A stretch of 64,000 nucleotides of DNA from assembly GCA_965243715.1 (NCBI GenBank), contig CBDEVU010000007.1, forward strand, positions 203,480 through 267,479. Reading direction: 5' to 3'. The notes under the pieces are model-generated. The model saw only the letters and a list, made by a program, of their open reading frames with translations, was not told the DNA's origin and ran no database searches. Positions within the stretch are counted from its first letter, which is position 1. The number at the start of each line of letters is the position of its first letter. Below, one piece after another: positions 9,326 through 57,510 of the stretch. Both the position numbers and the translations under genes were made by a program. The DNA comes from Candidatus Aldehydirespiratoraceae bacterium. GTDB lineage: Bacteria; Actinomycetota; Acidimicrobiia; Acidimicrobiales; Aldehydirespiratoraceae.

Positions 9326-9910
9326 GTGGAGTCCAACCCCCGTCCTCCAATTTCGCCGGTCACCCTCGGCGGCACCAGTCCGCTTATAGCCCTCCACGAG
9401 TGGGTGGCCGAGGGCGTAGTTGACGAGGCCGCCCGTTCGCGCACTCGGCAGCGCTGGCTGGAACGCCAGGCCAAAGAGAGCGCGACACTAGCGGGCATCT
9501 TGAGCGACCTCGCCGAACGGGACTGCCCCGTCATGCTTACCACCCACGGGGGTCAGCAAATCCGCGGTTCGGTGACCGCGATTGGTGCCGATTTCGTCGT
9601 CATTGGCGAAACCCGGCGGGGCGACGTGTTTATCCCCCTCGGCCGTCTCGCCGTCGTGCGATCAGCCCCCGGTGAGGAATCGCCAACGGGAGACCGGCTG
9701 GCCAACTTCACCATGGTCCTAGCCGCCGCGCTAGTTGAATTGGCGCCGCAGCGTCCCGAGGTCGTTGTATCGGTCGGCGCTAGTCAAATCCGCGGCGAGT
9801 TACGTTCCGCGGGGGCCGACGTCGTCGCGGTCAGCCTCGACGGACCGCGACGCGAAGTTGTTCACGTGGCGGTAGCCGCCATCGATCATCTGGTTATCGT
9901 CGGGCGCTGA
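9326..9910 (+). CDS. hypothetical protein with a basic helical N-terminus and two tandem beta-rich repeats
   Basis: 194-aa ORF starting at GTG 9326, with an alternative GTG at 9404. There is an internal duplication: ...GGQQIRGSVTAIGADFVVIG...LGRLAVV versus ...GASQIRGELRSAGADVVAVS...IDHLVIV. I recognise no family. Confidence 0.45.
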   Translation: MESNPRPPISPVTLGGTSPLIALHEWVAEGVVDEAARSRTRQRWLERQAKESATLAGILSDLAERDCPVMLTTHGGQQIRGSVTAIGADFVVIGETRRGDVFIPLGRLAVVRSAPGEESPTGDRLANFTMVLAAALVELAPQRPEVVVSVGASQIRGELRSAGADVVAVSLDGPRREVVHVAVAAIDHLVIVGR

Positions 9911-14440: not shown

Positions 14441-15568
14441 TTATAATCGACGGAGCAATCCATCCGTGTCGTAGACCGGATGGCGTTGCTTCGCTTTCGT
14501 GAACACTATCTGAAAAAGCTGAATCGCTCGCACTCGAAAACCGGCGGCCGAACCCAAGAGGTAATACTCCCACGTCCGGCGGAAATGTTCGCCGTAGTGC
14601 GGAATCTCAGACCAGCGGTCATCGATATTGGCATGCCACTCCATGAGCGTTCGGTCATAATCTGGTCCGAAGTTGTGAACATCCTCGATAGTCCACGTTC
14701 TCTCCGCCGCACGACAAATCTGACCAAGCGACGGGAGCACACCACCAGGGAAAATATGGCGATCGAACCATGGATCGGTGTGGGTCTTCCACTCGTTGGA
14801 ACCAATCGTGTGATGAAGCATCAACCCGTCCGAGTCGAGCAATTCATCGCACTTCGCGAAGAACGAGCCGAGATTTCGGGGGCCGACATGCTCCATCATT
14901 CCGATCGAGGTGATGCGGTCGAAATGGCCTTCGAGGTCACGATAGTCGGCTTGTTCAATGTGGACCGGAAGCCCCGCCGTCCGTTGCCGGGCTACGGTGA
15001 CTTGTTCGATGGCCGGACTGATGCCCGTGACATGGATGTCGTAGCGTTCGGCCACGAACTGAGCGAACCCTCCCCAGCCACACCCAACGTCGAGCAACCG
15101 CATCCCCTGCTCAAGCTTTAGCTTGCGACAGATCAGGTCCAGTTTCGCCTCCTGGGCGGAGTCAAGGTCATCGGCGTCTCGCCAGTATCCACACGTGTAG
15201 ATCATGCGCTTGTCGAGCATGCGCTCGAAGAGGTCGTTGCCGATGTCGTAGTGGGCGGCCGCGTTCTTCTTGGCCCGCCGTTTGCTCTGCCGGTTAGCGA
15301 AGCGACTCGCGATCACCAGCCGAAGGAGGGCCGGACTGGGCCGAACGTGGTCAGCCAGGTTGCTTTCCTGAGCCACGGCGAGAAACTCGTCGAGTTGGTT
15401 AGCTGTCCACCACCCCGCCTGGTACGCCTCACCGAGCCCAAGTTCGCGGTCGCGAAAGACCCGTTTGAAGACGCGCTCGTCATGGACGTGGATGTCCGCC
15501 GGTGCGTCGCCGCCGACAGTCACCCCCACCGCCGCTAACGTTTCTTCAACGAATTTCGCTGCATCCAT
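14441..15568 (-). CDS. cyclopropane-fatty-acyl-phospholipid synthase family SAM-dependent methyltransferase
   Basis: 375 aa with SAM motif I LLDVGCGWGGFA and a CMAS-family layout. Confidence 0.87.
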   Translation of the reverse strand: MDAAKFVEETLAAVGVTVGGDAPADIHVHDERVFKRVFRDRELGLGEAYQAGWWTANQLDEFLAVAQESNLADHVRPSPALLRLVIASRFANRQSKRRAKKNAAAHYDIGNDLFERMLDKRMIYTCGYWRDADDLDSAQEAKLDLICRKLKLEQGMRLLDVGCGWGGFAQFVAERYDIHVTGISPAIEQVTVARQRTAGLPVHIEQADYRDLEGHFDRITSIGMMEHVGPRNLGSFFAKCDELLDSDGLMLHHTIGSNEWKTHTDPWFDRHIFPGGVLPSLGQICRAAERTWTIEDVHNFGPDYDRTLMEWHANIDDRWSEIPHYGEHFRRTWEYYLLGSAAGFRVRAIQLFQIVFTKAKQRHPVYDTDGLLRRL

Positions 15569-15622: not shown

Positions 15623-15699
15623 TGGCACCTCCGACAGGACTCGAACCCGCAACCGTCGGGGTAGAAACCCGATGCTCTATCCAGTTGAGCTACGGAGGC
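15623..15699 (-). tRNA. tRNA-Arg (anticodon TCT), CCA encoded
   Basis: Hand-folded cloverleaf on the minus strand: GCCTCCG TA GCTC AACTGGATA GAGC A TCGGG TTTCTAC CCCGA CGGTT GCGGG TTCGAGT CCTGT CGGAGGT G CCA (77 nt). It needs a few G-U pairs. Confidence 0.85.
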
Positions 15700-15793
15700 A
15701 AGAACAGGGTAGACCTATTGGGTCCCAAGCCGGTACACTACGGATTCGTTCGTCTCTTGAGACGGGCCGTCGCCGGACCTTCGGGCCCCGCGT

Positions 15794-15868
15794 GGTGGGC
15801 GTAGCTCAGTTGGTTAGAGCGCCTGGTTGTGGTCCAGGAGGTCGGGGGTTCGAGTCCCCTCGTTCACC
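15794..15868 (+). tRNA. tRNA-His (anticodon GTG) with encoded G-1
   Basis: Fold: G GTGGGCG TA GCTC AGTTGGTTA GAGC G CCTGG TTGTGGT CCAGG AGGTC GGGGG TTCGAGT CCCCT CGTTCAC C. The extra 5' G opposite C73 is the His identity element. CCA is not encoded. Confidence 0.88.
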
Positions 15869-15897
15869 CGATAGAATTGTTCCATGGATCAATTCCT

Positions 15898-15970
15898 GCA
15901 CCTCTAGCTCAATTGGTAGAGCATCGGACTCTTAATCCGCAGGTTCTGGGTTCGAGTCCCAGGGGGTGTA
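15898..15970 (+). tRNA. tRNA-Lys (anticodon CTT)
   Basis: Fold: GCACCTC TA GCTC AATTGGTA GAGC A TCGGA CTCTTAA TCCGC AGGTT CTGGG TTCGAGT CCCAG GGGGTGT A (73 nt). CCA is not encoded. Confidence 0.87.
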
Positions 15971-20737: not shown

Positions 20738-21574
20738 TCACTTTACTGATCCGGCCACTAGTCCACGAACAAAGTACTTACCGAGCACAACGTACACCAG
20801 CGCGGTCGGGGCGGCGGCGATCAAGGCCCCCGCCATCACTACATTCCACTGGATTGACAGACTTCCCGATAGATTATTTAGGGCCACCGTGATGGGTTGC
20901 TTAGAGGGATCAGGAATCACGGTGATGCCGAATATGAAATCATTCCAAATATTGGTGAACTGAAATATTCCGGCCACCACAAACCCAGGTAACGACAACG
21001 GCAGCATCAGACGGGTGAATATCTGGGTTGTTGTTGCCCCATCGACCTGGGCCGCCTCTAGGATCTCATCGGGTATCTGGGCGTAGTAGTTCCGAAAGAT
21101 CAACATCGTGATAGGGATGCCGTAGATGACGTGGACCATAATCAGCCCCGTATGTGTGCCGTAGAGGTTGAAGTACTGCAGGAAGCGGACGATGGGGATC
21201 AGAACGACCTGGTACGGAATGAACATTCCGAGGAGTAATGCGGCAAAAATGCTGTTACTGCCGCGAAAGGGCAACTTCGCGAACACGAAGCCGTTAAGGG
21301 CACCAATAATCGACGACAGTACCACCGCCGGGATGACGATGATCAGACTGTTCTTGAAGTTCGAACCAACTTCATCCCACGCTTCGCGCAGACCGCCAAA
21401 ACTCACTGACTCTGGTAGTTGCCACATGTAAAGGGCGTCGGCTTGGTTGGGCGGTTTCAGGCTCGCCATGACCATGACGTATACAGGTATGAGGAAAATT
21501 ATGGCAAGTATTGTTAGGGCCATGAGTCCCGGAAGTCGCGTCTTGCTGTACGCGGCCGGTTCCGTTGCGCTCAC
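20738..21574 (-). CDS. carbohydrate ABC transporter permease (MalG-like, CUT1)
   Basis: The track ORF (405 aa) is over-extended. GTG 21574 overlaps the upstream stop as GTGA and leaves a 279-aa six-TM permease. Confidence 0.87.
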   Translation of the reverse strand: MSATEPAAYSKTRLPGLMALTILAIIFLIPVYVMVMASLKPPNQADALYMWQLPESVSFGGLREAWDEVGSNFKNSLIIVIPAVVLSSIIGALNGFVFAKLPFRGSNSIFAALLLGMFIPYQVVLIPIVRFLQYFNLYGTHTGLIMVHVIYGIPITMLIFRNYYAQIPDEILEAAQVDGATTTQIFTRLMLPLSLPGFVVAGIFQFTNIWNDFIFGITVIPDPSKQPITVALNNLSGSLSIQWNVVMAGALIAAAPTALVYVVLGKYFVRGLVAGSVK

Positions 21575-22593
21575 GCTTTCGATCCTAGGTAAGTCCGGTA
21601 CAGGTACGGGACTATCACGATGGCGACGAGCAGTAACATGACCATTGATGCGGCCGCCCCCGTATTGAACCTGAGCGAGCGAAAGGTCTGTTCGAAAACG
21701 TAGATGCCCGGCACGTCGGTAGCGAACCCCGGTCCCCGCCCCGACATCGCAACTACTAAGTCGAAACTCTTGAGACTCACATGACCCAGAATCACTAGCA
21801 CCGTCACCAACATGGGGCCAAGATGAGGTAAAGCTATGTACCGGTAGTATTGGTGGCTCTTGGCCCCGTCCAACGCCGCGGCCTCCGACAGTTCTTCGGG
21901 GATAGTCGCTAGACCGGCGAGGAAGATTGCCATAGCAAACCCGGCCAGTTGCCATGATGCCGCGATGACTACCGGGATTAGCGCCAACGGGATCCCGAGT
22001 TGAGTGTTAATGAACGGACCGCCCGGAACAATTGCCTCCAACGCCGCCGAGAGGTCTCCAACCACCGTAGGGTCAGTGATCCAACCAGGGCGGGCATCGA
22101 TTCCTATTACCTCGAGAATGCGGTTAGCGCCCGTAGAAGGTGTAAATATCCACCGCCACACTACGCCCGTGATGATGAACGACAGTGAGTACGGAAATAA
22201 GAAGACCCCTCGAAAGAACCCCCTGGAACGCAAGGTATTGTGGACTAATACCGCTAGGACGAATCCGAGCACTACGGCGAGGCCCAAGAAAAGCACGGTG
22301 AATACCGTGATATTTCGCAGGTCGGCCTGAAAGCGCGGCGACCTGAGCATGTCGGCATAGGTTTCGAGCAGTGGATCATGGGGTTGGAGATTGATGGTTA
22401 ATCCCTCCCACTGAGAGACAGAAACCGTTGCGGTATAGGCGATGAAACCGTAAATAAATAGGCCCAGCACCACCAAAGTTGGGACCGTCACCGCAAACCT
22501 GAAGCCGTTACGGGCCCAGAATCCATTCCGACGGGGTCTGACCATCGTTTCGCGTGAGATCCCTAGGGATTTGGCGGAGGTTGCGGTTGCCAT
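21571..22593 (-). CDS. carbohydrate ABC transporter permease (MalF-like, CUT1)
   Basis: ATG 22593 is preceded by GAGGAG with a 7-nt spacer. The product is a multi-TM protein with the EAA-loop region EELSEAAALDGA. Confidence 0.87.
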   Translation of the reverse strand: MATATSAKSLGISRETMVRPRRNGFWARNGFRFAVTVPTLVVLGLFIYGFIAYTATVSVSQWEGLTINLQPHDPLLETYADMLRSPRFQADLRNITVFTVLFLGLAVVLGFVLAVLVHNTLRSRGFFRGVFLFPYSLSFIITGVVWRWIFTPSTGANRILEVIGIDARPGWITDPTVVGDLSAALEAIVPGGPFINTQLGIPLALIPVVIAASWQLAGFAMAIFLAGLATIPEELSEAAALDGAKSHQYYRYIALPHLGPMLVTVLVILGHVSLKSFDLVVAMSGRGPGFATDVPGIYVFEQTFRSLRFNTGAAASMVMLLLVAIVIVPYLYRTYLGSKA

Positions 22594-22677
22594 CGGGTTA
22601 CTCCTCGTGGCCGCTACTGCCCGAACCGGCCTCGGCTGATCCTCGTGAGGGGCCGAGGCCGGGGGTGACAAGTCGTG

Positions 22678-24018
22678 CTAGCCTTGGGCTAGAGCGCTAA
22701 TGAACGCATCAACATTCTGGTCTTGCGCGAAAACGGTCACCGCCTCCGACATCGCCGTCTGAAAGCCAGGTTCGCCGTGATGAACGATCGACAAGGCGGT
22801 GGCGTCACTTCCCAGCGCCATCGCCGCGCCCTGCTGATAGCGAGGCAACGACGACACGTCGACGTCAGTACGTACCGGACTTGAACCCTTGGCCAGGTTA
22901 AACGCCAACTGTGTTTCCGGCTGTCCCATCTCTGCCAGCCAAACCTTGACTAGCTCCCAGTTCGGCGTGTCCTTGGCCACCACGAATGCGTCGACCACCA
23001 GCATGAAGATGCCGTCGGTGCCGGGATGATTGACGTAACCAAACCCCTCGTTGTCAACCGCGCCGGAGTTGACTAGTTCACCGTAGGCCCAGTCCCCCAT
23101 GCTGTTGAAGGCGCAACCATCGTCGGCCAACCGCAGAATTGCCTGATCCCATGTCAATGCGCTGGCGTCTGGATCAACGAAGGCCAATATGGCGGCGAAG
23201 TGTTCGGCAGCTTGGCGGACCTCTGGGTCGTCCCAGGAACGAGCACCGTCTCGAAGATCGGCCCACCCATCGGCTCCAACGAAACCTAACAGCGCGTTCT
23301 CAAAGAGTTCGTCGACCGCGAAGGCTTGGTTGGCGCCCAAGCAAAGCGGGATGATCCCTGCCGCGTCGAGGGTGGCCAGATCGTCAATAAACTGCTGGGC
23401 GCTGTAGTCGCCCTCCGGGGCGGCCACGCCCGCCTGTTCCAGCAAGGCCACGTTGTACCAGAGGTTGTTGCCCCGATGAGCGCCGGTCGCGACGGCATAG
23501 ATCTCACCGTCGGAGGTCAAAGACTCGATCAAGCCCGCGGGCATTACGTCCCGAAACCCGTTCTCGTCGTAAACTTCGGTCACTGGGCGGACGACATCGG
23601 CTTCCAAGTACGGCGTCAAACGCCCACCGGGACCAGATTGCCAAGTATCGGGAAGGTCATTGCCCTGAATCCTCGTCGCCAACACCGCTTGAGCGTTGGC
23701 CCCGCCGCCGCCGGCAACAGCTCCGTTGAGAATGTCCGCGTCCGGAGCACCGGACTGAAACGCCGAGATCAGCGACTGAAGCGCGGTGTCTTCGGAACCC
23801 GACGTCCACCAGCTAAAGATCTCCAGTTCACCGGTCAACCCATCGCCGGTGGCAGCTTCGTCAGGGGCGTCGGCTCCCTCGGCCGGTTCAGCGACGGAAC
23901 CGTCAGCGTCGTCGTCATCGCCACACGCGGCGGCGATCAAGGAAAAGGCCGCCAATACGGCCAGTAGTCGGCCCATTGAGAGCCATCTTTTATTTGAATA
24001 TTTTGAAGAACCAGTCAT
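22678..24018 (-). CDS. extracellular solute-binding lipoprotein (family 1, sugar ABC)
   Basis: ATG 24018 is preceded by GAGGAGGA with an 8-nt spacer. The signal and lipobox read ...LLAVLAAFSLIAAAC GDDDD. No ATPase gene is adjacent, which is typical of CUT1 systems that use a shared MsiK-type ATPase. Confidence 0.87.
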   Translation of the reverse strand: MTGSSKYSNKRWLSMGRLLAVLAAFSLIAAACGDDDDADGSVAEPAEGADAPDEAATGDGLTGELEIFSWWTSGSEDTALQSLISAFQSGAPDADILNGAVAGGGGANAQAVLATRIQGNDLPDTWQSGPGGRLTPYLEADVVRPVTEVYDENGFRDVMPAGLIESLTSDGEIYAVATGAHRGNNLWYNVALLEQAGVAAPEGDYSAQQFIDDLATLDAAGIIPLCLGANQAFAVDELFENALLGFVGADGWADLRDGARSWDDPEVRQAAEHFAAILAFVDPDASALTWDQAILRLADDGCAFNSMGDWAYGELVNSGAVDNEGFGYVNHPGTDGIFMLVVDAFVVAKDTPNWELVKVWLAEMGQPETQLAFNLAKGSSPVRTDVDVSSLPRYQQGAAMALGSDATALSIVHHGEPGFQTAMSEAVTVFAQDQNVDAFISALAQG

Positions 24019-24040
24019 TGCTAGTTTCCTCCTCATTAGT

Positions 24041-24104
24041 TGTTCATTGCGGTGTTTGTTCATTGCATTGTTTGTTCATTGCATTTGTTGTTGATTGCCC
24101 TTGG
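24041..24104. repeat. four tandem 16-bp repeats (TGTTCATTGC core)
   Basis: TGTTCATTGC occurs at 24041, 24057 and 24073, and TGTTGATTGC at 24089, an exact 16-bp period. The array lies in the AT-rich gap between the GH88 stop and the SBP start. Confidence 0.85.
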
Positions 24105-24107
24105 GCG

Positions 24108-25250
24108 CTAGCTCTCGGTCGATACCCACCTCCCCCCTAGGCACTTGTCCAGCGCTTCGACAAAGAAGTACTCGCCCCACATCACGCTCTCGTCCACGCC
24201 CAAGCCCAACCGTTCGTGGTAGGAGCCGTGCTTCAAGATTCCCTCCCACTGCGGGTCATCGGAGGCCAAGAAATCGCTGCTACAGAGGCGACGGATTATC
24301 CCGAACGCGTAGTCCCGATAACGACACGCGATCGGCGCGTCGTCAGAGAGTGCAGCCAACTGCAGCAAGCCGCTGGCGGTGATCGCGGCAGCAGAGGATT
24401 CAGTTTTGACGATCGGGTGGGGCTCATCCCAGTCGTTAGGCGGAACGTTTACATCCCCCGTCCGCTCGATGAAGTAATCCGCGGCGGCCTGGGCAGTCTC
24501 GAGATACTCCGGCACGCCGGTGAAGGCATACATCGTGCCAAAGCCGTACAGCGCCCACGCCTGGCCCCGGGCCCAACTCGAATCCGACCGCCAACCCTGC
24601 TGCGTGCTCTGGCGGAGGAACTCGCCGCTGGCGGGGTCGAAGATTCCTTCGTGGGCGGTACTCCCGTCACCTCGTAGGAGATGACGGCGGGTATTCATGC
24701 AGTGTCGTTCGACGATGGCGGCCAACTCGCCGTCGCCGTCGCGTTCGGCGGCGTACTGAATGATGCCGACGTTCATCATGATGTCGATAAACGTCGAATC
24801 CGGCGCAAGGAACGAACGCAAGAAACCCGCTCGCTCGTCGAACCGTAGCGCCATAGTCCGACCCGCCTGCACGACGACCTCGTCGACTTTGACGTCGCCG
24901 CTCAGCCGAAACCACCTCCGCCAAGTCGGCCAGAACGTGAACCCGAGGTCGTGTACGTTACGGTCAAACTCACGGCCCCGCAGCGCTTCGGAGTACTCCA
25001 CGGCACTATCTCGCCAACGCGACTCTTGGGTTTGTTCGGCGAAAATCCAAAGCTGCCCGCCCAGAAATCCCTCACACCAATTAGTCCAAGCAGGCGAAGT
25101 GTGATTCCACCGACCGTTCTGGGTGACGAGCGGAAAGAGCCCCGGGTGCTTCTTGATAAGAGCGCCAACCTTCAACTGTGCCACACAAAGAGCCGTTTGG
25201 GCGTCGGCGGTCACCTCGGCGGGCACACGGAAAAGTTCGTTCGTCGTCAT
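24108..25250 (-). CDS. glycoside hydrolase family 88 (unsaturated glucuronyl hydrolase-like)
   Basis: 380 aa with WCEGFLGGQLWIF, HDLGFTFWPTW and WARGQAWALYGF, which match the GH88/GH105 (alpha/alpha)6 motifs. Confidence 0.82.
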   Translation of the reverse strand: MTTNELFRVPAEVTADAQTALCVAQLKVGALIKKHPGLFPLVTQNGRWNHTSPAWTNWCEGFLGGQLWIFAEQTQESRWRDSAVEYSEALRGREFDRNVHDLGFTFWPTWRRWFRLSGDVKVDEVVVQAGRTMALRFDERAGFLRSFLAPDSTFIDIMMNVGIIQYAAERDGDGELAAIVERHCMNTRRHLLRGDGSTAHEGIFDPASGEFLRQSTQQGWRSDSSWARGQAWALYGFGTMYAFTGVPEYLETAQAAADYFIERTGDVNVPPNDWDEPHPIVKTESSAAAITASGLLQLAALSDDAPIACRYRDYAFGIIRRLCSSDFLASDDPQWEGILKHGSYHERLGLGVDESVMWGEYFFVEALDKCLGGRWVSTES

Positions 25251-26023
25251 CGGGCGGTGAACCTCGGAGGCCGTTTCTCAACGAAGGCTGCCATTGCCTC
25301 GGCTAAGTCTTTGGTAGTGGACAGCAACGATCCGGCGAGCATCTCCAAGGCCTGCGATGCCGACAGTTCCTGGTCAAGGGCGCCCAGCACGACCTTCGCT
25401 ACTTCCTGGGCTAACGGTGCCGGGGTGGTGAGATCGTGGACGTAGCGAGCGACCAACTCGGCAAAATCGAGGGGTTGGGCTACTTCGTTGACTAGACCCC
25501 AACTCGCCGCGGTGGTCGCGTCGAGGGGGCGCCCAGTCAGGATCAGTTGGCGCGCTCGAACCGAGCCGATGGCATTGATCAAACGAGCGGTGCCACCCCA
25601 GCCGGGGACGGTACCTACGCTGACCTCCGGGTGGCCGAAGGTGGCCGCCGGTGTCGCCAGGCGGATGTCGCAGGCCAAGGCCAACTCCAATCCTCCCCCC
25701 AGCGCGGGGCCGTCGACGACAGCCAGGGTCGGCCGAGAGAAGGTAGCCAGCCGGGCGAACGTACGATGACCTGCCTCGACCCAAATTCGGCGCATCGACT
25801 CGCGTGTCTGCTGGGCGAACAAGGTCAGGTCGGCACCGACGCTGAACGCTCTCCCCCGGCCTGCCACGATGAGCACACCGACGTCATCGCGGCTTTCGAG
25901 ATCACCGACCAGGTGCTCGATGTCGGCCAGCATTCCCGGGGTCAGGGCATTGAGTTTCTCATCGCGCTGGAGTTCTAATCGGGCCACGCCGTCGACCACC
26001 TCGCAGCTCACGTAGTCGCTCAT
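25247..26023 (-). CDS. enoyl-CoA hydratase/isomerase (crotonase) family protein
   Basis: 258 aa with the crotonase fold (...AGRGRAFSVGADL...GPALGGGLELALACD...). Forms an ATGA overlap with GH88. Confidence 0.87.
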   Translation of the reverse strand: MSDYVSCEVVDGVARLELQRDEKLNALTPGMLADIEHLVGDLESRDDVGVLIVAGRGRAFSVGADLTLFAQQTRESMRRIWVEAGHRTFARLATFSRPTLAVVDGPALGGGLELALACDIRLATPAATFGHPEVSVGTVPGWGGTARLINAIGSVRARQLILTGRPLDATTAASWGLVNEVAQPLDFAELVARYVHDLTTPAPLAQEVAKVVLGALDQELSASQALEMLAGSLLSTTKDLAEAMAAFVEKRPPRFTAR

Positions 26024-26037: not shown

Positions 26038-26112
26038 TTGGATAACCCAGTATTGGATAACCCAGTATTGGATTACCCAGTGTCGGATTACCGTGTCTTG
26101 GATCGATCTAAA
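26038..26112. repeat. five tandem 15-bp repeats (TTGGATAACCCAGTA family)
   Basis: Units: TTGGATAACCCAGTA (26038, 26053), TTGGATTACCCAGTG (26068), TCGGATTACCGTGTC (26083) and TTGGATCGATCTAAA (26098). The last unit is the first operator-like site. Confidence 0.88.
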
Positions 26113-26133
26113 GTGAGGGCCTGGATCGATCCA
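26099..26133. promoter_or_regulatory. two operator-like palindromes upstream of the crotonase-GH88 unit
   Basis: TGGATCGATCTA (26099-26110) and TGGATCGATCCA (26122-26133). Confidence 0.55.
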
Positions 26134-26158
26134 AATCATGACCCGAAAGATGTGGCGC

Positions 26159-27754
26159 TTAGCCATCGGCAGGCTCCTGGAAGAGAGACGTCGCCATCAA
26201 CCGCACGTCGTTGGCGACGAGTAGTTTGACCTCGGCGCAGCCTAAGATGTCGCGTTCGAGGTCGATCCCCGGCGCGATTTCTGTCACCACCAACCCCTCC
26301 GGACGCAGCCGAATCACACAACGTTCGGTTACGTAGATAACCTCGGCACCGCGTTCGAGGGCCCGACGACCGCTGAAGGACACTTGGTCCACGTCCGGCA
26401 CGAACTTGGGTTTTCCTGCATTCGACTCGATCGCTAGTTGACCATTACCCACCACTAGGCCGTTATTTCCGGCCATGAAGGTGCCCACGAAGATCAGTTT
26501 GGAGGCCGCTTCGGTGATGTCGGCAAAGCCACCGATCCCTGCCGAGACGTGACTGCGACCAGCCAACCGCGACACATTGACGTTGCCGAACTGATCGACC
26601 TGCATGAACGACAAACACGCCGCGTCGCATCCGCCCCCCTGCAACAGCGTGAATTGACTAGGCGCGGGGAGCACTGCGTCAGGGTTCAACGCACACCCGA
26701 ATCCCGGACCGGTTACCGGGAATCCGCCGACCGCTCCCTGCTCGGTCACCCAGGTAACGTGGTCGCCGCGACCTTCCTCGTGAAATACCCGGGGAATGCC
26801 CGAACATATGCCAAAGCCGAGGTTCACAATCCAGCCTTGCTTCAGTTCGCCACTGGCTCGGCGGGCAAGTACTTTCTCGATTCCCCACGGGAGCGGTTCG
26901 ATATGATCAACGGGGCCCATGATCTCCCCCGACAGCACCGGGTCGTAGCGGATCTCGGTCGTTTGCATCTGGTCCGGTACCACAACAACTGCGTCCACGA
27001 TTGCTCCGGGAACCCTGACTCCTTGCGCCGCCAGGCTGCCCGCTTGTGCGAGGCGCTTGACTTGAGCGACGACGATTCCGCCGTTGTTGTGGGTGGCGAG
27101 TGCTTGTTCGAGGATTCCCAGCGGCGCGCCCTCGTGTTCAGTAGTAATATTTCCGTGCGTGTCGGCGGTAGTACCGCGAATCAGGGCTACATCGGGGCAC
27201 AGCGGCGGGTAGTGCAACCACTCTTCGCCAGCGAACGTAACGACCTGGACCAAATCGCGGGGCGTGACATCGTTCAGCGCTCCACCTGCGCGTCGAGGGT
27301 CAACAAAAGTGTCGAGGCCGATCTTGGTGAGCACGCCGGGTTGATGCGTTGCCCCCGCCGCGTGCATCTGAAAGAGCACTCCGCTGGGCAGATTCCAAGC
27401 CGCAACCCGGTTTTCGTCGATCATGGTCCGAATCCGGGGCGGGGCCAATGACGAGGGTCCACTGGGAAAGGAGCCCGCCAGAACTTGGCGCAGTAGTCCA
27501 TCGCGGGCGAGGTGGTCGATGCCACGGATCCCGAACATGTCGCCCGCGGCAATCGGGTTGATCACGGTTAGATCAGCAGGTGAACCGGTTTCACCGAAGG
27601 CATCGCCGAGGACGGCCAGCAAACGGTCAGGACAAGCCAACCCTGACGATGCACTCACCGACACCGTCGCGCCGGGGCGAACTAGTCTCGAAACGGCCGC
27701 CGGGTCGAGAACGGGTACCGTCTTGCCCTGGCGTACCGGCCGCTCATAGTTCAT
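26159..27754 (-). CDS. acyl-CoA:acetate/3-ketoacid CoA-transferase family protein (YdiF/Pct-like, fused alpha-beta)
   Basis: Starts MNYERPVRQGK (ATG 27754), forming an ATGA overlap with the LacI stop. Carries the family-I catalytic Glu context WVTEQGAVGGFP. Confidence 0.82.
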   Translation of the reverse strand: MNYERPVRQGKTVPVLDPAAVSRLVRPGATVSVSASSGLACPDRLLAVLGDAFGETGSPADLTVINPIAAGDMFGIRGIDHLARDGLLRQVLAGSFPSGPSSLAPPRIRTMIDENRVAAWNLPSGVLFQMHAAGATHQPGVLTKIGLDTFVDPRRAGGALNDVTPRDLVQVVTFAGEEWLHYPPLCPDVALIRGTTADTHGNITTEHEGAPLGILEQALATHNNGGIVVAQVKRLAQAGSLAAQGVRVPGAIVDAVVVVPDQMQTTEIRYDPVLSGEIMGPVDHIEPLPWGIEKVLARRASGELKQGWIVNLGFGICSGIPRVFHEEGRGDHVTWVTEQGAVGGFPVTGPGFGCALNPDAVLPAPSQFTLLQGGGCDAACLSFMQVDQFGNVNVSRLAGRSHVSAGIGGFADITEAASKLIFVGTFMAGNNGLVVGNGQLAIESNAGKPKFVPDVDQVSFSGRRALERGAEVIYVTERCVIRLRPEGLVVTEIAPGIDLERDILGCAEVKLLVANDVRLMATSLFQEPADG

Positions 27755-28818
27755 GTCGAAGCCACCGAGAGAGGGCAGCCGCAACTGCGCCGGACCTGCA
27801 GTGACGAAAAAACGATGCGATCTTGAGGGGCGACCACATCGCCGCGGTCTATCAAAGCGACGAGCATTTCCGCCGCGGCCCGCCCGATCTCCTTGGCGGC
27901 GACTCGAACGGTAGATAAAGGGGGTTGTTCGAATTGAGCGGCTTCAATATCGTCAAACCCCATCAAGAGTGCGTCCTTGCCTACCGTCACTTCGCGGGCC
28001 CGTAGCGCTGACGCGACCCCGAGGGCCACGACATCGTTGTAGGCGAACACCGCTGTTGGTTGGGCGGGCAACGTGTCCCAAAACGACCACGCTGTGTCGT
28101 AGGCGTCGGGGCGAGAGACGGCGGAGGACAAGGTAATTAGCTCCTCGGGATCACGACCCGCGGCTACCAGACCTGCCCGCAAACCCTTGCATCGTTCCAG
28201 GTACGGCGATCCGCTCGCCCATCCACCAATAAAGACGAAAGAGGCGGGCTGGTGTACTGAAGCCATATGGTAGGCGGCTTCGTAAGCGCCCTGAGTGTTG
28301 TCCGACCCGACATAACTGGCGGTGGCGGCGTCCACCCGTCGAGAGCACAAAACGATCGGTATCCCGGCCGCGGTCAAGCGGTCCAGAGCCGGGGCGGTCG
28401 AACCGTGGGCTGCGGTCACGATCACGCCATCAACTCCTGCCTCCATCAAGCGATTGAACAAGGCGTCTTGGGCAGCAATGTCCTCGGAGTGTTGCCCTAG
28501 AATTGCGGTTCTCCCTGTCACCGAAATTGTGGACTCGATGCCATCGACTACCTCGGCGAAGAACGGGTTTCTCACCGTGGTCACCACCACGCCAACCGAA
28601 CCCGTCCTTTGTGCTCGCAGACTCGATGCCGCTCGGTTGTAGACATAACCAAACTCTTCGAAGGCCTTGAGGACTTTGGCTCGTGTCTCATCGGCGACAA
28701 GGGGGCTACCGCGTAACACCAAACTGGCCGTTGATCTAGAAACTCCGACCGCGGCCGCGACATCAGCTAACCGAACCCGTTTACGGCTGGCCGTGTCCTC
28801 GGCCTGCGGATTTTTCAC
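27751..28818 (-). CDS. LacI-family transcriptional regulator
   Basis: HTH VRLADVAAAVGVSRSTASLVLRG followed by a periplasmic-binding-fold core. I prefer GTG 28818 (GAGG lies 7 nt upstream). The track start 28956 would place a promoter and the palindrome inside the ORF. Confidence 0.84.
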   Translation of the reverse strand: MKNPQAEDTASRKRVRLADVAAAVGVSRSTASLVLRGSPLVADETRAKVLKAFEEFGYVYNRAASSLRAQRTGSVGVVVTTVRNPFFAEVVDGIESTISVTGRTAILGQHSEDIAAQDALFNRLMEAGVDGVIVTAAHGSTAPALDRLTAAGIPIVLCSRRVDAATASYVGSDNTQGAYEAAYHMASVHQPASFVFIGGWASGSPYLERCKGLRAGLVAAGRDPEELITLSSAVSRPDAYDTAWSFWDTLPAQPTAVFAYNDVVALGVASALRAREVTVGKDALLMGFDDIEAAQFEQPPLSTVRVAAKEIGRAAAEMLVALIDRGDVVAPQDRIVFSSLQVRRSCGCPLSVAST

Positions 28819-28836
28819 TACTCGACCTCGCCTTCT

Positions 28837-28850
28837 TTGGATCGATCCAA
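28837..28850. promoter_or_regulatory. perfect 14-bp palindrome TTGGATCGATCCAA (putative LacI operator, autoregulatory)
   Basis: Read directly. It abuts the -10 of the promoter below and lies 19 nt upstream of GTG 28818. Confidence 0.6.
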
Positions 28851-28878
28851 GGTTAGGAGCCATGGTGTGGGATGTCAA
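28850..28878 (-). promoter_or_regulatory. putative promoter of the lacI/CoA-transferase unit
   Basis: On the minus strand: TTGACA (28878-28873), a 17-nt spacer, then TAACCT (28855-28850). Confidence 0.5.
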
Positions 28879-28942
28879 GGATCTCCGTCGGGGTAAAACT
28901 GTGCGAGCCGGAACTCTGAGAGTCTTTACTCTCAACATTTCG

Positions 28943-30043
28943 TTAGCGGGTAACACGGGCTCCCCTTGCCTCGACCGCGGCGAGCACCTCGGCGGCGGTC
29001 ATCATCGACGTGTCGCCAGGGGTTGTCATCACCAACGCGCCGTGAGCCGCTCCGATCTCCACCGCCTCCGCCGGGGTGCGCCCTTCGATCAAACTCCATA
29101 TCGTGCCCGACGCAAAACCGTCGCCGCCACCCACGCGGTCAAACACCTCGAGACCGTCACGAGTGCGGGCCTCGTAGAACTCTCCGCCTGCGCAGAGCAC
29201 AGCGCTCCAGTCGTTAGTAGTGGCCGTTGACGCCGTCCTCAGGCTCGTACCGACAACGACAAGGTTGGGAAAGGCAGCAATAACGTCGTTTATCATTGCC
29301 TTGAAAGCAGAAGTGTCGATCTCGGAGATGTCGTCATCGAGTTCTTCGACTCGAAAACCAAGCGCCGCGGTGAAATCCTCCTCGTTGCCAAACATTACGT
29401 CCACCAACGAAGCGAGTCGCCGGTTCACCGCAACCGCCTTAGATTGGCCGCCACGAGAGGCCCACAGCGACGGGCGATAGTTCAAGTCGTAGGAGACGAT
29501 TGTCCCCGCCGCTCGGGCTGCCTGAATTGCTTCGAGCGCCACGTCGGCCGTAGTTTCCGACAAAGCGGCGAAAATGCCCCCCGTATGCATCCACCGGACC
29601 CCCTCCACTTCGAAAATCTGCTGCCAGTCGATGTCCCCCACCCGCAACTGCGATACCGCTGTGTTGCTGCGGTCGCTCACCCCTAGGGCGGGCCGGAGCC
29701 CATACCCCTTCTCGGTAAAGTTCAGCCCGACCCGACCCGCCTGGCCCGTACCGTCATGGGGAATCCACCGGACGTGGCGTAGGTCAACGCCGCCCGCCAT
29801 TATGAGGTCCTCAAGGAGACGGCCTACCTCGTGATCGACGAGACTCGTCACGATGGCGGTGCGAAGACCAAACACCTTCCGTAGGGCTCGGGCGACATTG
29901 TATTCGCCGCCACCTTCACTCACACGAAACGTCCTCGTAGTCCGCACTCGACCCCATTCCGGGTCAAGCCGCAGCATTACTTCGCCCAAGCTGAGACAAT
30001 CCCACCTACAGTCTTGGCGGCTCAAGATATTGAGCCCGCTCAC
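28943..30043 (-). CDS. kdgK: PfkB-family sugar kinase (2-dehydro-3-deoxygluconokinase-like)
   Basis: 366 aa with CLSLGEVMLRLDP...GGGEYNVARAL and a C-terminal ...GGGDGFASG motif. Forms a GTGA overlap with the eda stop. Confidence 0.82.
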   Translation of the reverse strand: MSGLNILSRQDCRWDCLSLGEVMLRLDPEWGRVRTTRTFRVSEGGGEYNVARALRKVFGLRTAIVTSLVDHEVGRLLEDLIMAGGVDLRHVRWIPHDGTGQAGRVGLNFTEKGYGLRPALGVSDRSNTAVSQLRVGDIDWQQIFEVEGVRWMHTGGIFAALSETTADVALEAIQAARAAGTIVSYDLNYRPSLWASRGGQSKAVAVNRRLASLVDVMFGNEEDFTAALGFRVEELDDDISEIDTSAFKAMINDVIAAFPNLVVVGTSLRTASTATTNDWSAVLCAGGEFYEARTRDGLEVFDRVGGGDGFASGTIWSLIEGRTPAEAVEIGAAHGALVMTTPGDTSMMTAAEVLAAVEARGARVTR

Positions 30044-30717
30044 GCCGCGTCTCCGTTACGAGCGACCGATACCGACTGCACCGCCGCTGTCAAAGCATCG
30101 CCTACAGCCAGCCAATCACGCTTCGCTATGTGTGTGGGCGAAAAGAGTTTCGAGCCCATACCAACCGCGGGCGCGCCTGCCTGATACCACGCTGCCAGCG
30201 ATTCTACGGTGGGCTCCACTCCGCCGGTCGGGATCGCCTCCACCCACGGACAGGGCGCTCGAACGGCGGCGAGGAAGGCCGGGCCGCCCAACGCTTCCGC
30301 GGGAAATAGCTTCACCATGTGGCACCCGAGATCGTAGGCCGTCTGAATCTCGGTCAACGTTGCACATCCGGGAACGTACAGCACCCCCTGACGAGCACAC
30401 GCTCGGCTAACATCGACCCCAAGCGAGGGAGCAAACACGAAGCTCGCCCCCGCGCCGATTACCCGGGCCGCGGTGGGTGCGTCGGTTACCGTTCCTACTC
30501 CGATGGCCACCTCGGGAAGTTCGAGGCGACCCCACGAGAGAAGTTCCACGACAAGATCAAGCGCACCAGGGCCACGGTTGGTGAACTCCAGGCAGGACAG
30601 ACCACTTGACGCCACCAGGCGCGCTAGTTCTTTGGCTATCTCCAAGTCCCCCACGGAACAGACAGGGACCAAGCCGTCGCTTTTCATCCTCGCCACGACC
30701 TCATCCGCTCTCAACAT
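30040..30717 (-). CDS. eda: KDPG / KHG aldolase
   Basis: 225 aa in the Eda/DgoA family (...CLEFTNRGPGA...VGTV...VKLFPA...). AGGAG lies 5 nt upstream of ATG 30717. Confidence 0.86.
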   Translation of the reverse strand: MLRADEVVARMKSDGLVPVCSVGDLEIAKELARLVASSGLSCLEFTNRGPGALDLVVELLSWGRLELPEVAIGVGTVTDAPTAARVIGAGASFVFAPSLGVDVSRACARQGVLYVPGCATLTEIQTAYDLGCHMVKLFPAEALGGPAFLAAVRAPCPWVEAIPTGGVEPTVESLAAWYQAGAPAVGMGSKLFSPTHIAKRDWLAVGDALTAAVQSVSVARNGDAA

Positions 30718-30731
30718 TTACACTCCTGTTT

Positions 30732-30756
30732 TGGATCGATCTAATGGATCGATCTA
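30732..30756. promoter_or_regulatory. two back-to-back operator-like sites TGGATCGATCTA
   Basis: Located at 30732-30743 and 30745-30756, between the promoter below and the eda SD. Confidence 0.55.
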
Positions 30757-30785
30757 AAAGTACTCAAGATAGGCGGTGTCGTCAA
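30757..30785 (-). promoter_or_regulatory. putative promoter of eda-kdgK
   Basis: On the minus strand: TTGACG (30785-30780), a 17-nt spacer, then TACTTT (30762-30757). Confidence 0.5.
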
Positions 30786-31006
30786 GGGCAATACTGATAT
30801 TAGGACTGTCACACCGTACAAATACACTGCTGTCATGTTTAGCAAAACGCACCTCGCAGAGCATCGCCTCGTTTACACCGCGGCCATCGACGCCCTCGGC
30901 GACACCGGGGATGACGCAGTCGAGCAGACGTCGCCGGATGAAGCCGAGCAAGTTCGTAGCGTAAATCCAGATGGTGGATAGTTAATGATCGAATTAGAAA
31001 AAATGC

Positions 31007-31035
31007 TTGACGTTTTAGTTTCGTTCTGATACAAT
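31007..31035 (+). promoter_or_regulatory. near-consensus promoter giving a leaderless or near-leaderless HNH mRNA
   Basis: TTGACG (31007-31012), a 17-nt spacer, TACAAT (31030-35), then 6 nt to ATG 31042. No SD is present. Confidence 0.6.
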
Positions 31036-31041: not shown

Positions 31042-32127
31042 ATGTTCCAGAAAGCGCACGACAACTTGGCTGAGATTGCTCTCCATGGAATGTCTCGACC
31101 GGAGTTGACCACAACCATTGGTGGGCTTGATCGAGTGATCGCTCACGCGCAAGAACGTCGCTTGGCCTGCTTGGCTGGGATCGACGCCTTGGGCGATTCT
31201 GGGGCTGATGCGGCTTCTGTGGGGCATTCGTTGTCGCGGCGCTCGAACCGGCAGTCCAAAGAAGACGCCAAGGTCGCTACACAACTTGCGCAGATGCCCG
31301 CGGTGGCCGAGAGCTTGGCCAGTGGGGCTATCACTTCTGAGCATGCCGCTGTGTGTGCTGAGGCGGCGGCTCGGGTATCGCCTAGCGAGGCCGAGGAGTT
31401 GCTGGCCTTGGCTGCGGATTTGCCTGCCGATCGGTTTGCTAAGAAGACACGCGAGTGGGTCAATATCAGGGAATCTCAGGGCACGGTTGAGAAGCGTCAC
31501 GCTCGGCAGCGTCGTTTGCGCGAGGTAACTGACTGGGTTGACGGCGAGGGGATGGTCAACATCTTGAGCCGCCTTGATCCGATCAATGGCGCACGGGCTC
31601 TAGCTGCCTTACGCGAGTTTGCTAACCAGAAGGGCCCCGACGACACTCGTACGGTGAAGCAGCGCCGCGCCGATGCGATGGTGGCGTTGCTCACTGGTGC
31701 TCGGGCGACCCGTACTGGCAAGCCGCATCCCAAGCACATGGTCCACCTGCTGCACTGTCTCGAGACGGGCTCCACCGAGCTAGCTGACGGCAGCCCCGTC
31801 CCCGACGACGTACTCATCGAACTCGGCCCCACCGCCGAAGTAGTCGGCCAGGTATTTAGCGGCGACGGCCGACCGTTGTGGTTGGGGCGCTCCACCCGCC
31901 TAGCTAGCCGCGATCAGTGGATTGCTCTTATCGCCCGCCATCGTGGCTGTAGCGAATGCGGCGCAACAACGGACCGCACCGAAGCCCACCATGCTAGGGA
32001 ATGGTCCCACGGCGGGCCAACCGACATCGACAACCTCGAACTACCCTGCTGGAACTGCCACGGCCGAAAACACCTTGGCCAACGCGGCGACCCCGCCCGC
32101 CACCGAAAACCAACCCCCGCCGCCTAG
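31042..32127 (+). CDS. DUF222 / HNH endonuclease (13E12-repeat-type selfish-element protein)
   Basis: 361 aa with the C-terminal HNH motif CSECG...EAHHAREWSHGGPTDIDNLELPCWNCHGRKH and a DUF222-like helical N-terminus. It is flanked by AT-rich DNA and repeats. Confidence 0.85.
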   Translation: MFQKAHDNLAEIALHGMSRPELTTTIGGLDRVIAHAQERRLACLAGIDALGDSGADAASVGHSLSRRSNRQSKEDAKVATQLAQMPAVAESLASGAITSEHAAVCAEAAARVSPSEAEELLALAADLPADRFAKKTREWVNIRESQGTVEKRHARQRRLREVTDWVDGEGMVNILSRLDPINGARALAALREFANQKGPDDTRTVKQRRADAMVALLTGARATRTGKPHPKHMVHLLHCLETGSTELADGSPVPDDVLIELGPTAEVVGQVFSGDGRPLWLGRSTRLASRDQWIALIARHRGCSECGATTDRTEAHHAREWSHGGPTDIDNLELPCWNCHGRKHLGQRGDPARHRKPTPAA

Positions 32128-32175
32128 GACCGTGCAGCCTAGGACCCGCCACCTAGGACCCTGCCACCTAGGACC
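32123..32175. repeat. four copies of CCTAGGACC at a 14-15 bp period
   Basis: Copies at 32123, 32138, 32152 and 32167. The first contains the HNH stop TAG. Confidence 0.85.
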
Positions 32176-32245
32176 GTGCCGCCAACCCGAACCGATGCGG
32201 TGCTGGGGTCGGCCAGTGGCCCACCGTCGCGACTAGCTTCTTGGT

Positions 32246-43525: not shown

Positions 43526-44269
43526 CTAGGGCGTGGCCGCTACGGCGGCGCCAACAATGCCTGCGTGGGGGCCAAGATGGGCGACCCGGATTGGTTTGTC
43601 GAGGTTTATGTGCATGAAGTAATCATCGAAGGAACCGCTGAGTCCGCCCGCCACTATCCACCGCCGCGGTCTCAGCAGGCGATCAAGTTGGTCAAAATAA
43701 TGCTGGGCGCGGCAGGCCCAATCATGGGGGGTGAGGGCTTGTTCGGTGATCGATCGACCCGAGCAGGTGTGCTCGAACGTGCCGCATGGTCCGCCTAGTT
43801 CGCCGAACTCCGCGTTGGGGATGAGTCGGTCCTCGTGAAGTAAGGCGCTGCCTATGCCGGTGCCAAAGGTCAAGACAAGCGTAAGCCCCGACGTTGGCCC
43901 TAGGCCGTAGTGAATCTCGGCCAAGCCAACGGCGTCGGTGTCGTTCAAAAGAACGGTTCCGGGCCCGAGTTGTTCAACCAGCGGGGTCAGCGCTCCTTGG
44001 CGGGCCCAAGCCTGCGTGAGGTTGGGGGCTCTGCGAAGGCATCCGTCGTCCACGACGCCGGGCAGGGCACAGCCTGCCTGTCCTGCAAAATCGAGGTCGG
44101 CCCGTAGGTTGGCGATCAGCGAAGCGATTGCGGCGGGATCCGCTGTTGGCGGGGTGGGGGCGGTGGCCACGTCGGTGACCAGTGATCCGGTGTCAGTGTC
44201 GACGACGGCGGCTTTGATTGACGTGCCTCCAACGTCGATCCCGAGGCGATGTGAATTGATGGTGTCCAT
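43526..44269 (-). CDS. ppgK: ROK-family sugar kinase (polyphosphate/ATP glucokinase-like)
   Basis: 247 aa with LGIDVGGTSIKAAVVD. It lacks the ROK CxCGxxGC zinc motif, as PpgK-type enzymes do. Confidence 0.75.
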   Translation of the reverse strand: MDTINSHRLGIDVGGTSIKAAVVDTDTGSLVTDVATAPTPPTADPAAIASLIANLRADLDFAGQAGCALPGVVDDGCLRRAPNLTQAWARQGALTPLVEQLGPGTVLLNDTDAVGLAEIHYGLGPTSGLTLVLTFGTGIGSALLHEDRLIPNAEFGELGGPCGTFEHTCSGRSITEQALTPHDWACRAQHYFDQLDRLLRPRRWIVAGGLSGSFDDYFMHINLDKPIRVAHLGPHAGIVGAAVAATP

Positions 44270-56004: not shown

Positions 56005-57510
56005 GTGCAATATCGCGTAGATCAGCGCAGCGGCCTTCAAGAGCGTCCAGCGGCCGCTCCGTTCCCGATCGGTCCGAACGACCTGACCGAAGCAGTGCGA
56101 CGCGCCGGTGAGATGCACGCCGAGCGGATCGCGATTATTGGGGCGAACCGTTCGGTTACCTTTGGCGAGTTGCTCACCGATGTCGATCGTTTGGCGGGCA
56201 AACTCGCGGCCATCGGGATCACGCCCGGTGAGCGAGTCGCAGTCGCGGCCGCGTCGGGTCTCGATGCCGTGATCCTATTCTTGTCGGTGATCCGAGCGGG
56301 CGGAATCTGGCTCGGGCTTCATCGGCGAACTACGGCCGCCAACCGGGAACGGATTCTGGCCGAAGTCGGAGCGAAAATCGTGTTGAGCAGCACGGCAGAG
56401 GTCGACCAGATGAGCACCCGGGTTGCGCCGCGGCCCGCGATAAACCGGTCGTCGCCCGCCGCGCTGGGTTTCACATCGGGCACGACCGGGCTGGCGAAGG
56501 CCCTAGTCCACAGCCAGCAACAACTCCTGTATCCCGGTGTCGTCAGTCTTCACACCGAACCGACTCCTCTCAACGAGCGGATCGGTACTCCGTTGCCACT
56601 GTCGACGCTGAACATCATGTTGCTCGGGCCGATCACGGCTCTGGTGCGAGGGTCCACCTACATCGACTTGACGCTCACCGAGGCCACCGCCTTGGCCGCC
56701 GATGTTCACCGCCACGGCGTCACCAAAACTGTGCTCGTCCCCACCCTGATCCACGATCTGGTCGCCCAGGCGACGCCGAAGCTACGAAATTCGCTATCGT
56801 CGCTTACGACCGTGCTGGTGGGCGGTTCGAAAATGCCGCCCGGGATGATGGCTGCCGCCCACGCCAAACTCGGGTTGATCCTCACCGCCAGCTACGGCCT
56901 TTCCGAAGCACCGACCGGGGTGCTTCGTCGCACCGCCGACTCGCCCGCTCAAGTGTTGCCCGGGATCGACATCGCCGTCGATGCGGTAACCCACGAGATC
57001 ACCCTCGCCCCCGACTCAACCGGACCCTGGGCCCGATGTTGGGCCCCCACTCTCGGCTACTGGCAGCGTCCAGCGGCGACCGAGCGACTCTACGCTGGGG
57101 GACGGCTCCACACCGGCGATTACGGGTCCGTCGATGCTGATGGCCACATCGAGGTCATCGGCCGCGGGGTCGACATGATCTCGCGGGGCGCCACAATCAT
57201 CGCTCCGCACGAAATTGAGCGAGCCCTTTTGCATAATCCGGTCGTGGAGCAGGCAGCCGCTTTCGGCCTTCCCGACCCCCGACTGGGCGAGCGAGTCGTG
57301 GCCGCCGTTGTCGTCAACGCCCGTTACGCGGGAACCGACCCTACCGACCTAGCCGACCCTACCGACCTAGCCGACGCCACTCGACCTCACCTAGACGCCT
57401 ACAAGGTCCCAGCGGAAGTCCACATCGTGAAGGTGCTGCCCCACAACACCGCGGGGAAGGTCGATCGTCAGGTTCTGCGGCAGTGGTTCACCACGGGGCT
57501 AGACGACTAA
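56005..57510 (+). CDS. AMP-dependent synthetase/ligase (acyl-CoA synthetase family)
   Basis: AMP-binding motif GFTSGTTGLAKA with TGDYG and ...GKVDR at the C-terminus. The start is uncertain: track 55822 overlaps the divergent gene, and GTG 56005 is the first start clear of it. Confidence 0.8.
   Translation: MQYRVDQRSGLQERPAAAPFPIGPNDLTEAVRRAGEMHAERIAIIGANRSVTFGELLTDVDRLAGKLAAIGITPGERVAVAAASGLDAVILFLSVIRAGGIWLGLHRRTTAANRERILAEVGAKIVLSSTAEVDQMSTRVAPRPAINRSSPAALGFTSGTTGLAKALVHSQQQLLYPGVVSLHTEPTPLNERIGTPLPLSTLNIMLLGPITALVRGSTYIDLTLTEATALAADVHRHGVTKTVLVPTLIHDLVAQATPKLRNSLSSLTTVLVGGSKMPPGMMAAAHAKLGLILTASYGLSEAPTGVLRRTADSPAQVLPGIDIAVDAVTHEITLAPDSTGPWARCWAPTLGYWQRPAATERLYAGGRLHTGDYGSVDADGHIEVIGRGVDMISRGATIIAPHEIERALLHNPVVEQAAAFGLPDPRLGERVVAAVVVNARYAGTDPTDLADPTDLADATRPHLDAYKVPAEVHIVKVLPHNTAGKVDRQVLRQWFTTGLDD
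57337..57372. repeat. perfect 18-bp tandem duplication (in-frame DPTDLA x2)
   Basis: GACCCTACCGACCTAGCC occurs at 57337-57354 and again at 57355-57372. Confidence 0.9.

Follow-up and report, generated by a model that had tools for sequence, protein, structure and literature searches.

We analysed a 64,000-nucleotide stretch of DNA from a Candidatus Aldehydirespiratoraceae bacterium (contig CBDEVU010000007.1, positions 203,480 to 267,479), hereafter the window, in which a cluster of sugar-acid genes encloses a gene for a LacI-family regulator and carries five copies of one palindrome in its gaps. The whole locus is encoded on the minus strand, and its gene calls were confirmed. In the order of transcription, they encode a 2-keto-3-deoxy-6-phosphogluconate/2-keto-4-hydroxyglutarate (KDPG/KHG) aldolase (eda, 225 aa, 30040-30717; PF01081, 125.9 bits), a kdgK-like PfkB sugar-acid kinase (366 aa, 28943-30043; PF00294), the regulator (355 aa, GTG start, 27751-28818), a YdiF-like family I CoA-transferase (531 aa, 26159-27754; PF01144; E = 2.7e-111 to YdiF, 2ahu), a crotonase of the enoyl-CoA hydratase/isomerase family (258 aa, 25247-26023; PF00378, 150.5 bits), a homologue of GH88 unsaturated glucuronyl hydrolases (380 aa, 24108-25250; PF07470, 29.9 bits) and an ABC sugar transporter (20738-24018; PF01547, PF00528), which consists of a solute-binding protein (22678-24018) and permeases (21571-22593 and 20738-21574). 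The start of the CoA-transferase gene and the lengths of the transporter genes were adopted from the gene calls of L154, a metagenomic strain variant 99% identical to the window. An exact database look-up with the eda product returned no record. Past the transporter lie genes for two GMC oxidoreductases and one GFO/IDH/MocA oxidoreductase, which are without palindrome sites.

An earlier note, made from the sequence letters alone, had called this a uronate/2-keto-3-deoxygluconate (KDG) locus, and the label holds by homology. The GH88 protein resembles the Bacillus enzyme 1vd5 (E = 1.8e-50), the best solved relative of the kinase is the KDG kinase 2afb (E = 4.4e-45) and the aldolase belongs to PF01081, so that homologues of the GH88 hydrolase, the KDG kinase and the KDPG aldolase are all present. 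No KduI/KduD- or DhuI/DhuD-type genes were found among the genes scanned at ~9.9-35.8 kb, about a third of the genes in the window. The nearby GFO/IDH/MocA and GMC oxidoreductases could substitute for the isomerase and reductase steps.

Palindromes and predicted promoters in the gene cluster

The five sites fit the pattern T[GA]GATCGATC[CT]A and form three clusters over a span of 4.7 kb; the coordinates that the earlier note had given for them were all exact. The sites are strand-neutral. In the first cluster, O1a (30745-30756; TGGATCGATCTA on the plus strand, TAGATCGATCCA on the gene strand) begins directly after the eda -10 hexamer, and O1b (30732-30743; TGGATCGATCTA) lies 15 nt upstream of the eda ATG. 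A single base separates these two copies, which are 13 bp apart from centre to centre. The second cluster is a single site, O2 (28837-28850), a perfect 14-bp palindrome TTGGATCGATCCAA (TTGGATC/GATCCAA) that overlaps the final base of the lacI -10 hexamer and the expected +1. The third cluster, between the CoA-transferase and crotonase genes, contains O3a (26122-26133; TGGATCGATCCA on the gene strand) and, 23 bp downstream of it, O3b (26099-26110; TGGATCGATCTA, gene strand TAGATCGATCCA).

The motif was scanned across the 64-kb window of this genome, where it is concentrated in these gaps. A position weight matrix was made solely from the sites of relatives and then run over the window, giving 27.7, 28.4, 25.4, 18.0 and 25.2 bits for O1a, O1b, O2, O3a and O3b, respectively, while the next-best position reached 8.8 bits. 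With up to one mismatch to the 12-mer, we counted 11 strand-hits against 0.79 expected, a number reached in none of 100 shuffles, and the only other one-mismatch match is intragenic, at 45328. The earlier note had seen the core nowhere else in the window; GGATCGATC indeed does not occur in it outside the five sites, and the shorter core GATCGATC occurs once more, at 43748. Non-coding DNA makes up only ~8% of the window, but with the start of lacI corrected (see below) it contains all five sites. In 2.1 Mb of unrelated LacI-paralogue loci, T[AG]GATCGATC[CT]A was found once, compared with five times in these 64 kb.

The sites share the architecture of an even-length palindrome with CG at its centre. 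The earlier note had taken such a symmetric site to be the standard of LacI/GalR operators, in agreement with a catalogue of LacI-family motifs (Ravcheev et al. 2014, PMC4052901), in which palindromes are even and 1173 of 1303 motifs have a central CG. In the same catalogue, multiple sites occur in ~20% of operons with inter-site distances peaking at 13, 22 and 32 bp, and the window spacings of 13 and 23 bp fit the first two of these peaks.

Predicted promoters precede the first two clusters, and the earlier note had placed both hexamer pairs and their 17-bp spacers exactly. The eda-kdgK promoter (30757-30785, minus strand) combines TTGACG (30785-30780) with TACTTT (30762-30757), so that the gene strand reads TTGACG-17-TACTTT-TAGATCGATCCA-T-TAGATCGATCCA-AAACAGGAGTGTAAATG. 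The lacI promoter (28850-28878, minus strand) combines TTGACA (28878-28873) with TAACCT (28855-28850), and the gene strand reads TTGACA-17-TAACC[T-TGGATCGATCCAA]-AGAAGGCGAGGTCGAGTA-GTG. Both -10 hexamers conform to TAnnnT. A hairpin at 28917-28934 was considered as a kdgK terminator and rejected, as its folding (z = -0.56) was no better than that of shuffled sequence; there is thus no evidence that eda-kdgK transcription terminates before lacI. On the other side of the eda promoter, a divergent DUF222-HNH gene (31042-32127) has its own promoter-like TTGACG-17-TACAAT at 31007-31035, and an indel of ~66 bp relative to the 99% identical strain (window 30923-30987, L154 near 7897) lies between the eda promoter and this gene.

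The LacI-family regulator and its relatives

The regulator has an N-terminal HTH_LacI DNA-binding domain (PF00356; 48.4 bits, cut-off 27) and a C-terminal periplasmic-binding-protein-like effector domain (PF13377, 89.6 bits; PF00532, 89.2 bits), and aligns over its full length with solved LacI-family repressors. Its stop codon overlaps the ATG of the CoA-transferase gene (ATGA). The shortened GTG start at 28818, which the earlier note had preferred, coincides with the starts of the orthologues, and the independent annotation of the 99% identical strain calls exactly the same 355-aa product (P0001). No second LacI-family gene was detected in the window by tblastn, as the earlier note had also concluded. 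In the alignment, the hinge YNRAASSLR is matched by PNRAARTLV in 5ysz and by PSALARSLK in RbsR (9ny7), and the hinge Leu is kept. In PurR and LacI structures, it is this conserved Leu that enters the operator at its central CpG step. The closest solved structure, the LacI-family protein 5ysz, which we take to be a CelR, matched with only 116 bits. All 21 matches to NCBIfam equivalogs (RbsR, MalI, GntR, PurR, CcpA, IdnR and others) fell below the curated cut-offs, the best being lactose_RbsR with 166.6 bits against a cut-off of 382, and the regulator therefore cannot take the name of any known regulator.

Where loci carry the GATCGATC core, their regulators have in common the recognition helix GVSR[SA]T[AV]SLV and a hinge of the form GY[VI]YNRAA[AS]SLR. 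In the window regulator, as in the others, this helix has Leu where most family members have Arg (xSLV instead of xSRV; the usual helix is TVSR). Of the 59 closest homologues in the database, ~55 possess the GVSR[SA]T[AV]SLV helix, at identities as low as 33%. Where LacI relatives have the TVSR helix instead, their palindromes differ or no such palindrome is present; in L088-L090, for example, the helix is GVNVSTVSRSL and the palindrome before the genes is TTGCAACCGTTTGC rather than one with the GATCGATC core. Motif and recognition helix vary together. The Leu-for-Arg exchange fits a motif unlike the common AANCGNTT type, and the regulator is probably a member of a widespread, uncharacterised LacI subfamily whose motif can be written tT[GA]GATCGATC[CT]Aa. 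Neither the motif core nor the xSLV helix was found in the literature searched, where a motif search gave only cloning-vector sequences.

Phylogenetic footprinting, which the earlier note had suggested, revealed the same palindrome beside an orthologous LacI gene in ~14 related loci (L-numbers below) from Acidimicrobiia and more distant lineages, with regulators 39-77% identical to that of the window. They include Acidimicrobiia genomes (L001, 63% identity, Ca. Aldehydirespirator; L002, 66%; L156, 62%, Ca. Poriferisodalis), metagenome contigs (L155, 77%; L157, 58%; L081, 53%; L158, 52%; L082, 51%) and distant lineages at 39-42% identity (L159, L161, L163, L083-86/L092).

L154 has all five sites, and L155 keeps the full 2/1/2 layout, in which the lacI promoter (TTGACG-17-TATCCT) is again followed by an overlapping palindrome as in the window. 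L001, L002 and L156 have the double site behind a TTGACA promoter as well as a site at the CoA-transferase/crotonase junction. The double site with its 13-bp spacing recurs in L001, L002, L082, L155, L156 and L158; in L081, the spacing is 12 bp. Upstream of the first gene of the cluster, TTGAC[AG]-17/18-TAnnnT precedes the double site in L001, L002, L155 and L156; the double site also follows a TTGAC[AG] element in L158 and L082, and TTGACA is kept in L081 and L158. The lacI-proximal site is lineage-specific, since sites orthologous to O2 were found in L154, L155 and L157 and none in the kdgK-lacI gap of L001, L002 and L156. The distant lineages have one or two sites directly up- or downstream of the LacI gene, before CoA-transferase or oxidoreductase genes. 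Among distant clade members (35-39% identity), we also observed an extended motif TTAGTAGATCGATCTACTAA that retains the AGATCGATCT core (L087 ~217-236 and ~316-335; L160 ~9606-9623), and this variant suggests that the true operator may span ~20 bp.

The gene neighbourhood of the orthologues was also recurrent. The LacI gene is almost always adjacent to a YdiF-like CoA-transferase gene (L084, L155, L157-L161, L163), and the usual further neighbours encode a crotonase, an aldehyde dehydrogenase, a GH88 protein, a GMC oxidoreductase, which in some loci is a fusion with a Gluconate_2-dh3 domain, and a GFO/IDH/MocA oxidoreductase. The cluster of L160 adds a sulfatase, and that of L159 adds a GH106 protein and a pectate lyase. 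In the literature searched, we found nothing relevant on a pathway for the CoA-transferase/crotonase/GH88 module. A SorC-type regulator gene (Sigma70_r4 and Sugar-bind domains) lies beside the GMC oxidoreductase genes in L156 (20668-21065) and L157 (3022-3984), where the GMC genes have no LacI-type sites and may form a separate regulon; no SorC-type gene stands next to the GMC genes in a gene map that covers 21 kb of this region (L154).

The window system resembles catalogued LacI/GalR repressors in that its sites lie between promoter and start codon, the regulator gene sits within the catabolic cluster, and the regulator seems to control itself, as 72% of LacI-family regulators do (PMC4052901). 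CebR/CelR of Streptomyces and Thermobifida is an actinobacterial LacI-family repressor with a 14-bp perfect palindrome, TGGGAGCGCTCCCA, the same length as O2, and its half-site matches that of the window at five of seven positions (TGGGAGC versus TTGGATC). Both CebR and the window subfamily have sites within coding sequence. However, the recognition helices differ (GRGTVSRV in 5ysz, SRSTASLV in the window regulator), and CebR targets cellobiose/cellulose genes rather than uronate genes. KdgR of Bacillus subtilis is reportedly a LacI-family regulator of a kdg locus. RegR of Streptococcus pneumoniae (PMC6324787) is a LacI/GalR regulator located, as here, beside ugl (GH88), kdgK and eda-type genes, which it is proposed to control. 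The RegR and KdgR loci contain KduI/KduD- or DhuI/DhuD-type steps, whereas the window cluster type always has the YdiF-like CoA-transferase and usually the crotonase. The window regulator is not an orthologue of CebR, nor, as far as the comparison went, of RegR or KdgR.

The junction between the CoA-transferase and crotonase genes

The TTGGATCGATCCAA site at this junction abuts the crotonase ATG in L155, L001, L002, L156, L157 and L082, and lies 4 nt upstream of it in L158. In all of these seven relatives except L155, the site lies within the final codons of the CoA-transferase gene, leaving no intergenic space, and in five of them the stop of the one gene overlaps the start of the other as ATGA. 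The palindrome is read in different frames (FGSIQ* in L001, LDRSK* in L082) and forms the conserved block in an alignment with a mean column identity of 50%; selection therefore acts at the DNA level rather than on the encoded protein. The CoA-transferase gene of the window, like that of L155, ends earlier and leaves a true intergenic gap with a second site 23 bp upstream; in L155, the counterpart of O3a is degenerate (at 12808). Judged by its flanks and its pairing with O3a, O3b corresponds to the junction site of the relatives.

The junction site is the most conserved of the sites, yet it is without a visible promoter. The earlier note had the palindrome marking three promoters; those of eda and lacI stand, but the third cluster has no recognisable promoter and, in most relatives, its site coincides with the stop/start overlap. 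The three promoters should rather be read as two promoters and one conserved junction operator. An alternative for this part of the system alone is that the third cluster (26099-26133) is an intra-operon operator that acts as a transcriptional roadblock or a looping partner, which we rate at a little under an even chance. The absence of an evident -35/-10 pair in the window and the location of the site inside the last CoA-transferase codons of the relatives, directly or nearly at the crotonase ATG, both favour it. Intragenic positions account for <1% of LacI-family sites, and the window subfamily departs from that norm in having its most conserved site intragenic, but there are precedents in PurR within purB and LacI within lacZ (PMC4052901) and in a functional CebR site inside the txtB coding sequence (PMC4358012). 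Under such a roadblock, lacI and the CoA-transferase would be expressed at a basal level and the crotonase, GH88 and transporter genes would be kept tightly off.

On the other hand, a -10-like A2/T6 hexamer abuts the junction site in every lineage (CAGAAT, TAGTTT, TAAAAT, TAGATT, CACTTT), and a weak TTCAAG/TTTAAC-like element lies 16-17 bp upstream of it. At the two clear promoters, too, a -10 hexamer adjoins the operator, which makes a weak internal promoter plausible here. The true intergenic gap of the window and L155, with its two sites 23 bp apart, likewise speaks against a roadblock. A weak internal promoter and a roadblock within the operon are equally possible workings of the third cluster.

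The gap between O3b and the crotonase ATG in the window is occupied by a strand-neutral 15-bp tandem array, TTGGATAACCCAGTA, with 4.4 copies (26038-26103). Its units are near-palindromic and contain the half-site TTGGAT; they were considered as extra operators and rejected, as they have no matrix score and vary in copy number. The array has only ~2 copies in the 99% identical L154 (12720-12760) and is absent from the same junction in the seven relatives compared (L155 and six others). An RNA element in this gap was likewise rejected: the strong fold (-51 kcal/mol, z = -3.9) arises from the array, which varies in copy number and is missing in the seven relatives. A search of Rfam with the region yielded nothing, either above the gathering threshold or with E <= 1. 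The array is a copy-number variant and probably not part of the switch.

Similar arrays occur elsewhere in the window. One with 3.7 copies of a 16-bp unit (24040-24098, gene strand GCAATGAACAA) lies between the GH88 stop codon and the solute-binding-protein gene; it contains out-of-frame ATGs and is absent at the same position in L001 and L002. The solute-binding protein probably starts at the ATG at 24018, which is preceded by a GAGGAGG ribosome-binding site, and not at 24063. Further short arrays lie at 32119-32183 (period 15 bp, GCCGCCTAGGACCGT) and 57334-57387 (period 18 bp, CCGACCCTACCGACCTAG), and the genome seems prone to small tandem arrays. At the far edge of the sugar-acid region are three tRNA genes (15626-15970), adjoined by a gene for a methyltransferase resembling mycolic-acid cyclopropane synthases (14441-15568).

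A predicted repressor switch

The five palindromes very probably serve as operators for the product of 27751-28818, a repressor of the LacI family. An autoregulated LacI regulon with palindromic operators had been proposed in the earlier note, and comparative genomics supports this prediction to the full extent that sequence comparison can. We infer that the regulator binds these sites and that it represses rather than activates. Without inducer, repressor dimers would sit on the two overlapping sites 13 bp apart, just past the -10 hexamer of eda-kdgK, and another dimer would cover the site overlapping the -10/+1 region of the lacI-CoA-transferase promoter. Occupancy of O1 and O2 would block RNA polymerase, which at O2 would amount to negative autoregulation. 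The third pair, 23 bp apart, would limit expression of the crotonase, the GH88 protein and the ABC transporter, whether through repression of a weak internal promoter or as an obstacle to polymerases arriving from upstream. When unsaturated uronates are broken down, an intermediate might bind the sugar-binding domain and release the repressor.

Several observations weigh against this picture. The footprints of two dimers 13 bp apart would overlap, so both may not bind at the same time. The CoA-transferase and crotonase are outside the textbook uronate pathway, and the inducer therefore cannot be guessed. Some related loci do not conform: no site precedes eda in L157, L160 offers just a degenerate one, and L162, a clade member with a different gene context, has none. 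At the third cluster, we found no convincing -35/-10 pair. Finally, a strict consensus promoter scanner called neither the eda nor the lacI promoter, because each -10 hexamer matches TATAAT at just three of six positions; both promoters were retained because they are conserved in relatives.

If the sites are regulatory, they could instead be bound by another protein, global or encoded elsewhere, with the LacI gene as a bystander. We consider this very unlikely. L156 and L157 do have SorC-type regulator genes close to those for GMC oxidoreductases, and only part of the genome was covered. However, the motif accompanies the LacI clade through distant lineages and changes of gene order, in most cases directly up- or downstream of the LacI gene, and it shifts when the recognition helix shifts. 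An even palindrome with a central CG is a hallmark of the LacI family; in the window, no SorC gene lies near the sites, and the LacI gene is the only one of its family. Less credible still is the notion that the palindrome is a non-regulatory by-product, for instance copies of a promoter module that was duplicated, a small mobile repeat or a target of restriction/methylation: O3b with its 5' flank (ACTTT-AGATCGATCCA) does resemble the eda -10 hexamer and O1a, several intergenic tandem arrays exist in this genome, the O3 region folds strongly as RNA and the palindrome contains GATC and ATCGAT, but site positions are held across regulators of 39-77% identity while the flanks diverge, no further copies occur in 64 kb, GATC is frequent in the window (464 copies) and the strong fold is due to a variable tandem array that relatives lack.

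With the palindromes read as operators of the regulator encoded among them, the system is a new instance of well-known LacI-type control, and the general understanding of such control is unchanged by it. Less ordinary are the conserved intragenic junction site, the atypical recognition helix and the uncharacterised CoA-transferase/crotonase/GH88 module that recurs across lineages. One speculative proposal, which we regard as rather unlikely, is that a widespread and undescribed module (a YdiF-like CoA-transferase, a crotonase, often an aldehyde dehydrogenase, a GH88 protein and GMC and GFO/IDH/MocA oxidoreductases) handles unsaturated uronates by a CoA-dependent route replacing KduI/KduD, with the junction operator as a roadblock that splits the transcript into two differently controlled halves. 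For the family, a large LacI subfamily without a name, whose unusual recognition helix is shared by at least 55 database clusters from several lineages at identities down to 33%, now has a testable operator motif, which adds one more pair of helix and motif to the specificity rules of LacI-family regulators. With the motif, the regulon can be delimited in complete genomes, and this offers a handle on the conserved CoA-transferase/crotonase/GH88 cluster.

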